NCBI GenBank assembly: GCA_046262595.1
Contig: JBHEMM010000012.1
Location: 407-36,224 of the forward strand
Source: Vulcanimicrobiaceae bacterium
GTDB lineage: Bacteria; Vulcanimicrobiota; Vulcanimicrobiia; Vulcanimicrobiales; Vulcanimicrobiaceae
Reading direction: 5' to 3'
DNA length: 35,818 bases
Of this stretch, positions 3,001 to 15,000 are shown one piece after another; the first letter of the stretch is position 1; every line of letters starts with the position of its first letter. Made by a program: the position numbers.

Positions 3001-6000
3001 CGAGCCGGAAGAAGGATACTTAGCCGAAGGCGAACGCGGCGCGGGCCGCTTGGCGAGCGAAGAGCGTTTGCTCGGCGCGCTCGAAACGGCACTCGGGCGC
3101 ACGCAGTCGTTGCGCGGGCAGCGCGTTCTGATCACTGCGGGGCCGACGCGCGAGCCGTTCGATCCGGTGCGCTTCGTCAGCAACCCCTCCACCGGCGCGA
3201 TGGGTATCGCGCTGGCGCGTGAGGCTGCGCTTCGCGGTGCGGCCGTGACGCTGGTGCTTGGGCCGTCGAGCTTAAAGCCGCCGGCCAACGTTGAAGCGGT
3301 GCGCGTGCAGACGGCGCAAGAGATGTTCGAGGCGGCGATGGAACGCGCGGACGGTGCCGATATCGTCATCGCCGCCGCTGCCGTATCCGATTGGCGTCCC
3401 GAGAAGCGTGACGCGCAGAAGGTGAAGAAGACCGGCGAAGACATGAACGTGCGGATGGTGCGCAATCCCGACATTTTGCGCGCGATCGGCGAGCGCGCCA
3501 AACGCGGTTTTTTGCTCGGCTTCGCCGCCGAAACGGAACACCATGAAGCGAACGCCCGTGAGAAGCTGCAGCGAAAACGGCTGGACGCGATTGCGGTGAA
3601 CGACGTCGGAGCGGGGCGCGGCTTCGGCGCCGCGCGCAACGCGGTCACCGTGCTGTGGGGTGCGGACGGCCGCGCCGATCTCGGCGAAGCCGACAAAGAC
3701 GTCCTTGCCGCGCGTCTGCTCGATACGGTGATGCACCTTCGGATCGATGGTGGGAAAACGCATGCTTCTGGCGATTGACGCCGGCAACACCGAGACGAAA
3801 CTCGGCTGCTTCTCGCCGCAAGGCGACCTGCTGCAATCTTGGCGTGTCACGACGGAATCGCGCCGCACGGGCGACGAATACGGCGTGTTGTTTGCGCAGC
3901 TGTTTGCAACGGCGAAGCTGGCGCTTGCGGATGTGGAGCGCGTGGTCATCGCGAGCGTCGTGCCGAAGCTCGATAGCGCGCTCTTGAGCGCATGCGAGCG
4001 GTATTTTGAGTGCACGCCCGTGTTTTTCAAGGCGCACCGGCAATCGCTCATGCGCGTGGTGACCGACCGCCCCGGCGAAGTCGGCTCCGATCTCGTTGCC
4101 GCCGCCATCGGTGCGCGTGAACGGTACGGCGCGCCGCTGATCGTCGTCAGTTACGGAACGGCGACCGTCTTCACCGCCATCTCGCGCGAGGGCGATTACT
4201 TGGGCGCAGCGATCGCGCCCGGTATCAATATTTCGATAGACGCGCTCGTCGGACGCACCGCCAAACTTCCGCAGATTTCGCTTGAAGCACCGGCGCGTGC
4301 GATTGGCACCGATACGATCTCCGCGTTACAGTCCGGTATTATTTTCGGTTTCGTCGGACAGACCGAAGCGCTGGTTGCACGCATTCGCTCGGAACTGGGA
4401 GAGGATGCGCGCGTTATCGCAACCGGCGGATTGGCCGGAGCGATCGCGCAGCACACGCGCGTGATCCACGAAGTCAACGCGCATTTAAGCTTGTTCGGCC
4501 TGCAGCAGTTTGCACGGGCGAAAAGTTGACGTCGAATGCGGCCAAGTGTCCGGCACGTACTTTACGAAGCGCGCCTCACGGTAGCGTGAGGCCGATCCCG
4601 GCGTAGGGACCGCTGCGAACCTCATTAGCGGGCGCAGTCCCGGCACTGCGCGTGTGGTCGCCGAGATAGCCGAGCTGCAGGAACAGTGGTGCGTGCTGCG
4701 ATGTTTTTAGCGTCACGCCCATATCGTAGCGGAGTTCGTGATACACGCCCTGGATGTTGGGATAGTAATATGCTCCGCCGTACAGGGAAAACGTTTGATC
4801 GGTGTCCGCGAGCTTTTCGGCGCCGAATCCTATCGCGTTCAGCCGCGGCGCGCCGTAATCGTTATTCCGGCGCAAATAGCTCACCGCAAGATAAAGACGC
4901 GGTTCGAGCACGCGCAATCCGGCGCGCACATCCACTTCCTCATCCGCTGGGATGGCGGTTCCGGTGGCATCGGAGTAATGAAACAGCCGGTAATCCACGG
5001 CAACCAGGCCGGTGAGTGACTGCCCCAGCGGAAGCTCCGCAGCGCCGCGGAAGTAATGCGATCCGTATCGCGTGCCGGCGGAGCATGACACGGCCGTAAG
5101 CTGGTTGCAGACGATCGCCGGAATCAGGTATCCGCCGCTAACGAAGACCTCGCGTTTCGTGATCGGCGGCATCGCCGGCGGCATGCTTACCGCCGGGTTC
5201 GGCGTCGGCCCGGTTTTCGGAACTTGCGCGTGCGCAACCGACGGAAGAAGCGCAAGCGATCCAAAAGCGGCGATGGCTAAGACGATGCGGTTCATTGCGG
5301 CGCTCCTAAGTACGGGAAGTCTGCGGTGACGTGTTTGTGCGGTTTCACGTTGTCGCTCGTTAAGCACGGCGTCTCGCGATTGTCTTCGTGCGCTAGTCCG
5401 AGCTTAGGCATCAGACTGCCGTAGATCGCCCCCAGCGAAAGATCGATAACGGGACTGCTCGCATCGCGTCCGCCGAAGTGACGGTAGGAATCGCCCAGGG
5501 CTTTCTTGATGCCGTAGATGCCCGCCGGCGGTACTGCGCGCACCACGGCAACCGGGAATCCACTCTTTGCGTTCGTTTCGACGGCGAGATAGCGCGCCGG
5601 TCCGCTTGCGCTAAGGTCGGCGCGAATCGTATCCGGAATGAGCGTGTGCACTAAACCATCAGCGACGGACTCCGAACGGCCGGCGCCCGTGGGCTTGGGC
5701 CGCATGACGAACGCTTTGATCGAATCTGCTAAGACTTGGTCATCCAGAATATCGCTGCGATTCGTGACGTCGTGATTGCGGAAATCTTCCGTCGCCTCTT
5801 TAACGGCCGGGCGCGCAAGGCGTTCGACTTGCGAATAGACGGCATCGGTGCCGGCGGACGGGCCGGGCACGCGCGTATTGGCGTTCTTCGTGACGTCTTC
5901 GATGCGTTCCACAGCGGAATCGGGGCGCACATCGGGATCGCTTTCCGATAGCGAGGTGGTCGCCCACACGTTGATAATGCCGAGGTGGCCGTCGCTCTGC

Positions 6001-12000: not shown

Positions 12001-15000
12001 ACGTGATTTCGTCGCAGCTCCATTTGGACGGCATGTTTTGGCGCGCCGCTGCGGGTGCCGGGGCGCAGTTCGGCACGCTGGGGTTCATTGTGGTGGGCAT
12101 TTTTCTGGGAAGCTGGGCCGTCTCGACGATCGTGTATAAGGTCAAGCGCTACGACGAGTTGGACCTCGTGGCGGAGCCCGCCGGCCTGCAGCGGGGCGGC
12201 GGCCGGCCGGCCAAGGCCGCTTAAGCGTCGGATGTTTAGCGTTTAGCAACGCTGCGCGAGCATGTTATACTACTGCTCGCCATGTCCGCAACGTTCGAGC
12301 CACTGGTTATCGGCCCGCACCGCATTTCGCCCCCGCTCGTGCTGGCGCCGATGTCGGGCGTGACGAACCGCACCATGCGGGCGCTTTATAAGCCGTTCGG
12401 TCTGGGCTTGACGGTCACGGAGTTCGTTTCGGCCAACGCGCTGCAGTACGCCTCAAGCGCAAAGCGCACCATGGAGATGATCGACCAGCACGGCTTGGAA
12501 AAGCCGGTCAGCACGCAGCTCTGGGGCGACGATCCGGTGGTCATGGCCGAAGCGGCGAAAGTCGTGCGCGAATGCGGCGCCGATATCGTCGACATCAACT
12601 TCGGTTGCCCGGCTCCGAAAATTACCAAGACGAACGGCGGCTCGGCGTGCCTGCGCGACGTGGACCGCTGCGAGGCGATCATGCGCGCCGTGGTGGAGGC
12701 CGTGGATTGCCCGGTCACGATGAAGATGCGTTTGGGCTGGAGCGAAGACGCCCTGGTCTATATCGAGGTTGCGCAGCGCGCGCAAGCCGTGGGCGTGCAG
12801 GCCGTCACGCTGCATGCGCGGACGGCGCGGCAATTCTATAAGGGCAGCGCCGACTGGGGCCACATCAAGCGTTTGAAAGAAGCGGTCGCCATTCCGGTGA
12901 TCGGCAACGGGGACATTCAGGATGCGCAGACGGCCGTTGCCCGCATGCGTGAGAGCGGTGTCGACGGCATCATGCTCGGCCGCGCAACGCTGGGCAACCC
13001 GTGGCTCATCTCGCAGATACGCGATCTGATGGAAGGACGCGAGGCCTCGCAGCCGCCGTCCGCCGCCGATCGGTTGCGCTACGCGATCCGCGTGCACTTC
13101 AAAACCATGGTTGCCGAACTCGGCGAAGCGCGCGCCGTGCCGCAGATGCGCAAACATCTGGCGTTGTATTTGAAAGGCATACCCGGCGCCGCGATGCTGC
13201 GCGAGCGCATCATGCATCTCGATCGCGCGCAAGACGTTGAGACGGTGGTCGAAGAAACCATTGCCTCGCTGGAACGCGCGCTCGCGGCATGACCTTATTC
13301 GACGAAACGTACGAAAACTACAAGGAATACGTCAATCCGCCGCTCGCGCGCGTGATGAAACTTTCCGGCAGTCCGGTTGAAGTGCGCGCGCAAGGCTGCA
13401 CGATTTGGGATCACAACGGCAAAGAGTACCTTGACTTCGCCGGCGGTTACGGGGTGTTCACGCTCGGGCACTCGCATTCGAAGATCCTTGCCGCGGTCAA
13501 AGCGCAGATGGATTTGATGTCGCTCTCGGGCAAAACGATGTTCAACATCATGCTCGGACGCGCGTCGAAACGGCTCGCCGAGCTTGCGCCGGGTGATTTG
13601 AAGATTTCGTTTTTTGCCAACAGCGGCACGGAGGCGGTTGAGGGCGCGATCAAACTCGCGCGGGCAGCGACCAAGCGGCGCAAGATTGTGGCAACGCACA
13701 ACGCGTATCACGGCAAGACGCTGGGCGCGCTTTCCGCGAGCGGGCGCGATTACTTCAAGGACCGCTATTCGCCGCTGCTTGCCGACGTCGCGCATGTCGC
13801 ATACGGCGACGTAGCGGCTCTGGACGCGCAACTGCACGACGCCGCCGCGTTCATCGTGGAGCCCGTGCAAGGCGAGGGCGGTGTGAACGTTCCTCCCGAA
13901 GGCTACTTGCGCGAAGTGCGTGCTGCGTGCGACGCGGCCGGCGCGCTGCTGATTGCCGACGAAGTGCAGACGGGTCTGGGGCGCTGCGGCTACTTGTTCG
14001 GATGCAACCGCGACGGCGTCGTGCCCGACGTGATGACGCTTGCCAAGGGCCTCTCCGGCGGCGTCATTCCGGTCGGCGCGTATATCGCGCGTCCTTCGGT
14101 TTGGAAGGCCGCGTACGCGAAAGATCCGGTCATGCACACCTCGACGTTCGGCGGCGGCGAGCTGGCCTGCGCGGCGGCGCTCGCGGCGATGCATGTGCTG
14201 ATCGAAGACAATCTCGTGGAGTGCGCGCGGGCGCGCGGCGAACAGCTGCTCTCGGGCGCACAGGCGCTCGCGAGACGCTTTCCGGCGGTGATCAAAGAGG
14301 CGCGCGGCCTGGGTTTGCTGGTCGGCGTGGAACTCACGAGCGAAGGCTACGGCGGCTGGATCATTCCCGAGATGGTCAAACGCGGCGTAACTGCCGCCTG
14401 GACGCTCAACATGCAGCGCGTTATCCGGCTCGAACCGCCGCTGGTGGTGACCGCCGCCCAGGTCGAGCGGGCGCTCGCAGCGCTGGAAGCAGGGCTGTCC
14501 ACCGCCCAAGAGAAGCTCGGCGCCCTGTAACCGATGCCATACGTTGAAACGTCGATCATCATCGCAGCTTCCGCCCGCGTGGTGTACGAGCTTGCAAAAG
14601 AACAGGAACGCTTTCCGCAATTCATGCCGGACGTCGAAGCCGTGACCGTGCTCGAACGTCATCCCGGCCACATTTTGACGCGCTGGAAAACGCTGGTCGA
14701 AGAAGCGCCGATCGAGTGGATCGAAGAAGACCGTTTCGACGACGCCGCGCTGCGCATCGATTACAAGCTGCTCGAAGGCGATCTCGATAAGTTCGAAGGG
14801 GCGTGGACGTTCGCGGAAGCGTCGGGCAAAACGACGGTGACGCTCGGCGTAGACTTCGATTTCGGCGTGCCGACGCTCGCCGAGCTCATCGGCCCGACGC
14901 TCGAACGCAAAGTTCGCGAAAACAGCGAGATGATGCTGCTGGCAATCAAACGCGAAGCGGAGGCAGCATGAGCCGCGCAACGTTGAACGCCACGCCGAAG

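Follow-up and report, generated by a model that had tools for sequence, protein, structure and literature searches.

Organization of the locus

The window analysed here is a stretch of 35,818 nucleotides on contig C12 of a soil bacterium belonging to the Vulcanimicrobiaceae; at positions 4576-12224, profile searches and sequence reading revealed seven closely spaced genes. Two of them lie on the reverse strand: the first encodes a whole DUF4331 protein (5292-6662; 456 aa; PF14224, 136.3 bits with a cut-off of 27) and the second a small secreted protein of 239 aa with a signal peptide, probably an outer-membrane beta-barrel (4576-5295). A divergent intergenic region, delimited by sequence reading (6663-6935), separates them from five genes on the forward strand. 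These code, in order, for a long NicO/RcnA-like permease (6936-8423; 495 aa; PF03824, 34.8 bits, cut-off 27.7), a DUF4331 N half (8420-9193; 257 aa; PF14224, 113.6 bits, profile positions up to 235), a DUF4331 C half, which is a lipoprotein (9203-9874; 223 aa; PF14224, 55.4 bits, profile positions 250-421), a secreted TPR partner with a signal peptide (9874-11103; 409 aa; TPR_2, 28.7 bits, cut-off 27) and a permease of the HoxN/HupN/NixA-type NiCoT group (about 11106-12224; TIGR00802, 378.4 bits, cut-off 333.05; PF03824, 322 bits). Every gene that the genome-wide survey's note had listed for this locus is thus present; however, the two permeases that it had described together as NicO proteins are of different kinds, a long NicO/RcnA-like protein and a true HoxN-type NiCoT. 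By sequence and fold, both permeases are inner-membrane proteins, the one RcnA-like and the other a canonical NiCoT, and the remaining products are secreted or lipid-anchored.

Start and stop codons within the locus overlap or are 2-9 nt apart, which is consistent with two divergent operons. An ATGA overlap joins the start of the small barrel-like gene to the stop of the whole DUF4331 gene, and another the start of the DUF4331 N half to the stop of the long NicO gene; the ATG of the NiCoT gene is found 3 nt past the TPR stop codon. The divergent intergenic region contains a GTATG-N16-CATAC palindrome (6827-6852) that the other loci fetched do not share; promoter-like sites in this region do not rise above chance. 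No NikR_C domain was found in the genome, nor any riboswitch tying the locus to Ni or Co. The genome encodes a [NiFe]-hydrogenase, indicating that nickel is needed; a third NiCoT adjoins the hydrogenase genes on contig C10, which we count against the reading of the locus proposed below.

The paralogous second locus that had been reported on contig C59 was confirmed: all seven gene types are found there, in a different order, and C12 and C59 together give nine matches to PF14224. C59 is not set apart from the rest of the bin by GC content or tetranucleotide profile. Its short permease reaches only 70.4 bits with TIGR00802, below the cut-off of 333.05, and its H-x4-D-H motif reads R-H-G-A-D-P-D-H-L. 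A contiguous cassette of long NicO, short NicO, DUF4331 N half, C half and TPR protein is present in nine of 41 related genome loci, and in 15 of 41 related loci from Vulcanimicrobiota the gene after the one for whole DUF4331 encodes a homolog of the small secreted protein.

DUF4331 and its partner proteins

The signal peptides of the whole DUF4331 protein and of the N half end in A-P-A and T-L-A, respectively, and in both cases the predicted mature N-terminus is S-D-H-Q-D-S-P. The C half carries a lipobox, F-T-G-C21; among 27 separate C halves from other loci, a pattern likewise recognised 24 whose signal peptide ends in Cys, and inspection by eye added the remaining three. Among 121 representatives of the DUF4331 N-domain, X-D-H immediately follows the signal peptide in 101; residue -1 is A/G/S/T in 100 of these and residue -3 is small or aliphatic in 99. 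This signal-peptidase pattern supports the cleavage register assumed in the earlier note and favours a predicted His at mature position 3. The motif had also been held to be invariant across phyla, a claim that did not survive: 20 of the 121 representatives have no D-H, showing L/I/V/A/E instead of His where the frame of the motif is kept, the others being motif-less or of lipoprotein type.

The ATCUN motif, known from serum albumin, histatin and other proteins, is formed by a free N-terminus with the sequence X-X-His and without Pro at position 2. In DUF4331 the mature N-terminus is predicted to read S-D-H, likewise with no Pro in second place, and resembles this motif by sequence. Differently from ATCUN proteins, the DUF4331 site would be produced by signal peptidase on a folded protein of 420 aa, and the motif is absent in about one sixth of the members.

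The AF2 model of the whole DUF4331 protein has a pLDDT of 90.9 and a pTM of 0.91, and its ten N-terminal residues are modelled as coil (mean pLDDT 71); despite this confident fold, no solved structure resembling it was found by fold search. Asp47, Asp50, Asp163 and Asp168 are better conserved (76-79 of 80-81) than His3 and, since the latter is lost in the representatives without D-H, the key site could be acidic (e.g. for Ca2+) and internal. Where His34 is lost, Phe165 of the D-P-F-F-F-D loop tends to be lost too (0.93 vs 0.42), a hint that the N-terminus docks onto the fold instead of extending freely. With about 420 aa and many conserved positions, DUF4331 is more than a simple carrier requires. 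No description of the family was found in the text of the literature searched, and the source data of PMC12537917 list it just as an infrequent neighbour (counts 1, 2 and 1).

For the TPR partner, a family-specific HMM was built from 23 relatives and run on 39 independently sampled metagenome loci, each of at least 5 kb. In 32 of these, or 30 if two weak matches are left aside, it detected the partner shortly downstream of the DUF4331 gene; E-values range mostly from 1e-43 to 1e-177, with four weaker matches between 1e-6 and 1e-13. This protein thus constitutes a family of its own, found beside DUF4331, and the proposal that DUF4331 and a dedicated TPR protein form a conserved core holds in this sample. 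As for the small secreted protein, no match was obtained in Pfam, even at an E-value of 10, or in NCBIfam; its Atlas model (pLDDT 0.69) has TM scores of 0.63-0.77 to clusters of OMP_b-brl (PF13505), and its C-terminal residue is Phe in the C59 copy, not in the C12 copy.

The permeases and the His1 domain

H-x4-D-H in an early membrane helix is the signature of the NiCoT family. In the product of the last gene it is visible as R-H-A-V-D-A-D-H-I, and this protein scores above the TIGR00802 cut-off of the family that includes HoxN, NixA and NhlF. To our knowledge, known NiCoTs work alone; this one, conversely, is translationally coupled to the genes for the TPR protein and DUF4331.

The long NicO is composed of a signal peptide, a His1 extracytoplasmic domain (residues 24 to about 215, DNA 7005-7580), a membrane domain with H-x4-G-H-G-K and a His-rich loop. 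In 18 of 18 homologs the sequence A|H-P-[LM]-G-N-F places His first after the predicted signal-peptide cleavage. The model of the N-terminal domain (pLDDT 84.6) matched the structure of the anglerase Ang-1 (PDB 9GCE) in Foldseek with an E-value of 3.6e-5, probability 1.00 and TM 0.48/0.54, and this was the sole match at E <= 1e-3; in VIA the same structure came first (Z 8.9, rmsd 3.1 A, 131/168 residues aligned, 17% identity), followed by ZrgA (Z 6.7) and PA4063 (Z 6.3), two periplasmic proteins that we take to be zinc-binding. Sequence search gave no similarity. The models thus point to a feature that had escaped recognition: the long NicO begins with a His1 domain folded like the copper-binding Ang-1.

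Ang-1 and Ang-2 capture metal through His1 and occur as domains fused to HupE/UreJ-2; DUF6702 binds Ni2+ through its His1 with a Kd of 5.6 pM, and Cu2+ at 3.3 nM (PMC12537917, Nat Commun 2025). Anglerases, DUF6702 and DUF4198 share a secreted beta-sandwich that begins, once the signal peptide is removed, with a metal-binding His and is fused to or lies beside Ni-type permeases; the long NicO has a domain of this kind. Here, however, the His1 domain is carried by a membrane part that is NicO/RcnA-like and not PF13795, hence a different fusion from that of Ang-1 with HupE/UreJ-2; moreover, DUF4331 and the TPR partner do not belong to the published anglerase systems, and DUF4331 itself has its His at position 3, not 1, on an unrelated fold. 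By analogy, the His1 domain of the long NicO would work like an anglerase, in a different architecture, with metal binding as a prediction.

The best NCBIfam match of the long NicO is the RcnA model NF007454, a nickel/cobalt efflux model, with 87.3 bits (132.2 for the C59 copy), both below the cut-off of 195; its sequence thus assigns it to the NicO superfamily only and not to the RcnA type. The arrangement resembles RcnA/RcnB of E. coli in combining a NicO-superfamily membrane protein bearing a His-rich loop with a periplasmic accessory protein; it differs in the score, in the extra N-terminal His1 domain, in accessory proteins unrelated to RcnB and in a context that points to import.

In the metagenome sample a Ni/Co permease adjoins DUF4331 in 23 of 39 loci (NicO in nine, HupE/UreJ-2 in 13, CbiM-CbiQ in one), in agreement with the earlier observation that the DUF4331-TPR pair sits beside three unrelated permease families; no known permease lies within reach of DUF4331 in the other 16. 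A second feature newly recognised here is that DUF6702, the picomolar Ni2+ binder, recurs directly behind HupE/UreJ-2 in ten of the 39 loci; both are immediate neighbours of the DUF4331-TPR pair there.

A candidate system for metal acquisition

The earlier interpretation of the locus as an envelope system for nickel/cobalt handling is partly supported. We favour, with a probability of roughly 55%, a modular envelope system that acquires a transition metal in its divalent form, most probably Ni(II) and possibly Co(II) or Cu(II); which metal it is, which way it is transported and that DUF4331 binds it are what we infer. The small barrel would provide the passage of the metal across the outer membrane. 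Signal peptidase would expose X-Asp-His on DUF4331, generating an ATCUN-type site from the amine, two amides and the imidazole of His3, which would capture the metal in the periplasm or at the cell surface; DUF4331 would be tethered by the lipoprotein C half, or by the C domain of the whole form, with the dedicated TPR protein as its scaffold. The long NicO may then receive the metal on its His1 domain, and NicO and/or the NiCoT would carry it into the cytoplasm. In other bacteria the same outer module of DUF4331 and TPR protein is combined with HupE/UreJ-2 plus DUF6702, or with CbiMQ.

ATCUN sites favour Cu(II) over Ni(II), and both X-X-His N-termini and His1 braces are classic Cu(II) sites; the same mechanism could therefore serve to scavenge or buffer periplasmic copper, an alternative that we consider unlikely, though it is the strongest of three rivals. 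Three of the 39 metagenome loci hold such genes nearby: Copper-bind (plastocyanin/azurin) in L073 and in L110, sulfocyanin in L089. Furthermore, the Ang-1 crystal contained Cu and Ang-2 binds Cu2+ at 62 nM (PMC12537917). However, NiCoTs such as the one above the TIGR00802 cut-off, HupE/UreJ-2 and CbiMQ are known for Ni/Co and not for Cu, the recurrent neighbour DUF6702 prefers Ni2+ to Cu2+, and no genes of CopA, CopC, CopD or CusF type were found in the loci scanned.

It is rather improbable that DUF4331 is instead an extracytoplasmic enzyme or a signal sensor, for example a ligand-sensing partner of ECF anti-sigma factors, with an N-terminal or acidic metal site and with the permeases as neighbours only through shared metal-dependent regulation. 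The protein is indeed large and two-domain, with many conserved residues beyond its N-terminus and a fold unlike any known metal carrier; His-less forms occur, and RskA-type anti-sigma genes lie directly upstream in six of the 39 loci. Conversely, DUF4331 showed neither a catalytic motif nor a known enzyme fold, and NicO::DUF4331 occurs as one uninterrupted reading frame in three of the 39 loci and in two representative clusters; this in-frame fusion, together with the fixed order DUF4331, TPR, permease, argues for a physical link to transport.

Finally, efflux or detoxification, with an RcnA-like NicO exporting Ni/Co and DUF4331-TPR modulating or buffering the exported metal like RcnB, appears very unlikely: the match to the efflux model, the His-rich loop and a Cation_efflux gene in one locus (L086) speak for it, but both NF007454 scores stay under the cut-off, the parts associated with it are otherwise importers (NiCoT, HupE/UreJ-2, CbiMQ and TonB-dependent receptors, the last in six of 39 loci), and DUF6702, a picomolar Ni binder, suits scavenging better than export.

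Returning to metal acquisition, we tentatively propose, at somewhat less than even odds, that the widespread DUF4331 proteins are secreted binders of Ni(II)/Cu(II), a new family of this kind, acting through an ATCUN-type X-Asp-His made by signal peptidase, and that with its TPR partner it would form an exchangeable outer capture module, handing the metal to a His1-type module (Ang-like or DUF6702) on NicO, HupE/UreJ-2 or CbiMQ. If true, metal would be relayed outside the cytoplasm in two steps, a mechanism that has so far not been described; the locus offers a role that can be tested for a protein family that is widespread but had no assigned function.

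The locus and its second copy

The contig that carries the locus (C12) belongs to a Vulcanimicrobiota (Eremiobacterota) bin of 2.4 Mb that is 89.7% complete. At 4576-12224, seven genes form two divergent groups, each tightly coupled. On the minus strand lie the genes for a whole DUF4331 protein of 456 aa (5292-6662) and for a 239-aa secreted barrel-like protein (4576-5295), the ATG of the latter overlapping the stop codon of the former. The plus-strand group comprises a long NicO-superfamily protein of 495 aa (6936-8423), a DUF4331 N half (8420-9193), whose start overlaps the stop of the long NicO gene, a lipobox-bearing DUF4331 C half (9203-9874), a secreted TPR protein (9874-11103) and a NiCoT permease (11106-12224), which starts 3 nt past the TPR stop. 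The flanking genes are housekeeping genes unrelated to the locus: panC, coaBC and coaX (type III pantothenate kinase) of a CoA pathway cluster upstream (1809-4529), dus (dihydrouridine synthase) and a class-III aminotransferase downstream (12282-14530). Neither a public sequencing run nor a holder of RNA is listed for the locus.

The genome-wide survey's note had described this seven-gene locus together with a paralogue on contig C59, and both were found in the places it had given. C59 carries the same seven gene types in a different gene order; its GC content is 63.7%, versus 62.7 +/- 1.0 for bin contigs of at least 5 kb, and GC and tetranucleotide profile together do not set it apart from the bin. 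Since several relatives carry two DUF4331 sets on one contig, it is plausible that the two loci are paralogues within one cell. The TPR gene of C59 (L009:3532-3603, L009 being contig C59) shows a signal-peptide-like stretch directly after the preceding stop, with no ATG, GTG or TTG ahead of it; translation may start from a CTG at 3535. Upstream of the C59 locus, an ORF (L009:1-1677) with a GGDEF-like start and then a long helical-repeat, regulator-like part may be regulatory.

Two kinds of permease and an Ang-1-like domain

Both permeases had been assigned to the NicO family in the survey; two are indeed present, but they are of different kinds. The last gene product scores 378 bits with TIGR00802 (cut-off 333) and contains the H-x4-D-H signature, which identifies it at the sequence level as a canonical HoxN/NixA-type NiCoT. 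The long NicO protein, with a His-rich loop, reaches 87 bits with the RcnA model, under the cut-off of 195, and is best classed as a member of the NicO superfamily only, RcnA-like below the model cut-off.

Behind its signal peptide the long NicO protein has about 190 extra residues, with His as the first (domain at 7005-7580, plus strand), and the start A|H-P-[LM]-G-N-F is found in all 18 long-NicO homologues. Modelled with AF2 (pLDDT 84.6), the domain gave a sole significant Foldseek match against the PDB, 9GCE (E 3.6e-5, TM 0.48/0.54), the copper-bound Ang-1 domain from a HupE/UreJ-2 protein. VIA, which is independent of Foldseek, likewise ranked 9GCE at the top (Z 8.9, rmsd 3.1 A over 131 residues), ahead of two periplasmic proteins, ZrgA (Z 6.7) and PA4063 (Z 6.3), both presumably zinc-binding. 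PDB sequence searches with this domain and with the N-domain of the HupE/UreJ-2 protein of locus L065 returned no match. As modelled, the domain is an Ang-1-like His1 beta-sandwich, that is, one with His as the predicted first residue after the signal peptide.

To our knowledge, Ni/Co uptake via secondary permeases (NiCoT, HupE/UreJ) was thought to need no extracytoplasmic helpers, and it was not until 2025 that His1 capture modules were first reported. In the work concerned (PMC12537917, Nat Commun 2025), DUF4198 is reported to bind nickel, DUF6702 to bind Ni2+ at 5.6 pM via its N-terminal His and Co2+ and Cu2+ in the nanomolar range, and Ang-1 and Ang-2 are presented as His1 'anglerase' domains fused to HupE/UreJ-2 and proposed to be metal catchers for the permease. 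NicO, TPR and ATCUN, the X-X-His Cu/Ni site, have no mention in its main text, and the paper has DUF4331 in neighbour-count tables only, with counts of 1, 2 and 1. Whereas the Ang domain is found on HupE/UreJ-2 only in that account, in the window the permease that bears the Ang-like domain is of the NicO/RcnA-like kind, an architecture not described before.

DUF4331 and its predicted N-terminus

No paper text on the family came up in a literature search under the names DUF4331, PF14224 and IPR025566. The AF2 model of DUF4331 (pLDDT 90.9, pTM 0.91) is a beta-sandwich in its N half and mainly helical in its C half; it opens with seven residues of coil, and pLDDT averages 71 over its first ten-residue block. 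The protein has no PDB match by sequence, Foldseek with the model returned generic beta-sandwich rows only (best E 7.5e-3) and VIA gave no clear match, the best, to Sas6 (Z 7.5), being again a generic sandwich; thus no fold is assigned to DUF4331. An Atlas search returned DUF4331 clusters only.

The family comprises about 1,475 cluster representatives (E <= 1e-3). Among the best 150 of them, 121 include the N-domain start, and in 101 of these 121 a D-H pair stands about 14 residues ahead of a D-I-T-D-V-Y-x-F strand, the residue before D-H being Ser in 72 and Ala in 29 of them. Just upstream of X-D-H a hydrophobic stretch is present in 100 of the 101, position -1 is A/G/S/T in 100, position -3 holds a small or aliphatic residue in 99 and position -2 is Arg in 37. 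The -3/-1 pattern fits a mature end X-D-H, in which His is the third residue, better than cleavage one residue further on, in keeping with the predicted register proposed in the survey. The accompanying claim that X-D-H is invariant across phyla does not hold, since D-H is absent from 20 of the 121 representatives: those keeping the motif frame have L/I/V/A/E for His, with Asp mostly kept, while in the others the motif is wholly absent or the protein is of a lipoprotein-type form. Signal peptide and Asp are kept, with Leu/Ile/Val for His, in representatives P0035, P0045, P0053, P0054, P0071, P0076, P0085, P0145 and others; P0012, P0016 and P0019 make up a lipoprotein-type subgroup in which the motif is altogether absent.

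An alignment of 95 rows shows His34 in 63 of 80 rows and Asp47, Asp50, Asp163 and Asp168 in 76-79 of 80-81. Loss of His34 accompanies loss of Phe165, and apart from Phe165 and the immediate neighbours no polar residue was found to co-vary with His34. Most DUF4331 relatives also have an acidic K-I-D-N-x-G-D-x-x-E-D loop of calcium-binding look (alignments A1/A5, near window residue 94-102), which both window copies have lost.

Genomic neighbourhoods and a possible metal relay

Of 201 genomes sampled from this phylum, 104 have DUF4331, a count that takes in one unpublished genome (G128). At 9 of 41 Vulcanimicrobiota loci, long NicO, short NicO, DUF4331 N half, C half and TPR are contiguous, and at 15 of 41 the barrel-like gene comes next after a whole DUF4331. 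A metagenome scan with alignment A5 was taken to the 80 closest of at least 592 relatives, a sample biased to relatives of the window's DUF4331, and yielded 78 loci, 39 of them of at least 5 kb. The Pfam scan covered 354 of the 394 called ORFs of these 39 loci (at 27 loci, those up to 5 kb from the match); called ORFs lacked genes at several loci, and the Pfam-only counts (permease 16/39, TPR 19/39) are superseded by six-frame searches with HMMs from our own alignments. By these, the TPR partner lies on the same strand directly downstream of DUF4331 at 32 of 39 loci (30 without two weak matches), and one of three permease families is near DUF4331 at 23: HupE/UreJ-2 at 13, NicO at 9 and CbiM-CbiQ at 1. 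DUF6702 directly follows HupE/UreJ-2 at 10 loci, and TonB-dependent receptors and RskA-type anti-sigma factors are each found at 6. The order DUF4331, TPR, HupE/UreJ-2, DUF6702, sometimes with a TonB receptor next, is seen at L071, L073, L074, L079, L089, L090, L092, L094, L097 and L117. The DUF4331-TPR pair is thus conserved, with Ni/Co permeases of three unrelated families and DUF6702 as its repeated neighbours.

Where HupE/UreJ-2 is short, DUF6702 is encoded separately; the long forms (L065, L072) carry a fused His1 domain instead. Short NicO runs stop-free into DUF4331 at L055:7092-8693, L056:7134-9161 and L057:3356-5695 and in representatives P0006 and P0009; at these junctions DUF4331 keeps its own Met and a signal-peptide-like segment. 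No natural DUF4331::TPR fusion occurs among the 78 metagenome loci. Bacteroidota DUF4331 forms bear a T9SS sorting tail. Separate C halves are consistently lipoproteins (24 of 27 by pattern, the other three by eye), so the N/C split is old and functional, not decay.

The gene set is secreted or lipid-anchored and coupled to two Ni/Co-type permeases, one with an Ang-1-like His1 domain. DUF4331 would bind metal, probably nickel, through an ATCUN-type N-terminus, with the TPR protein as its scaffold, and the metal would be relayed to the His1 module and then imported. The survey's similar interpretation is partly supported: the DUF4331-TPR pair recurs beside three permease families, while the motif is not invariant.

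The metal could instead be copper, as bound in 9GCE; the published affinities of DUF6702 favour nickel. A GTATG-N16-CATAC palindrome in the divergent promoter region (6827-6852) resembles the E. coli NikR operator; it was rejected as chance and recurs in the other loci compared at a single unrelated place only. The 89.7%-complete genome gave no NikR_C match, Rfam models run on the window and eight loci (139,576 bases) gave one tRNA only and no cobalamin or NiCo riboswitch, an inverted-repeat scan of promoter regions found nothing in common, and promoter- and terminator-like sites were at chance level; in these searches, no riboswitch, NikR or conserved operator that would fix the metal emerged. 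As to nickel demand, the genome carries a [NiFe]-hydrogenase and no urease was found in it. A third, canonical NiCoT gene is found about 3 kb away from the large-subunit gene (C10:29847-30671 and C10:33549-35108 on the hydrogenase contig), so the hydrogenase may have its own nickel supply. Efflux rather than uptake would suit the RcnA-like side of the long NicO protein, the canonical NiCoT rather uptake. That DUF4331 is an enzyme or a sensor, not a carrier, is compatible with its widely kept Asp residues and fits less readily with the fixed order of DUF4331, TPR and permease and with the stop-free NicO-DUF4331 frames.

Nickel capture and uptake is the preferred reading. The system then belongs with the recently described extracytoplasmic modules that capture metal at their N-terminus for Ni/Co permeases, and its undescribed parts are DUF4331 and the TPR protein that partners it. 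If these two form a further, outer capture module, a widespread family gains a function, X-X-His sites made by signal peptidase would become, alongside His1 sites, a class of metal sites that can be searched for in bacteria, and trace-gas-oxidising soil bacteria dependent on [NiFe]-hydrogenase would have a candidate nickel-scavenging route.
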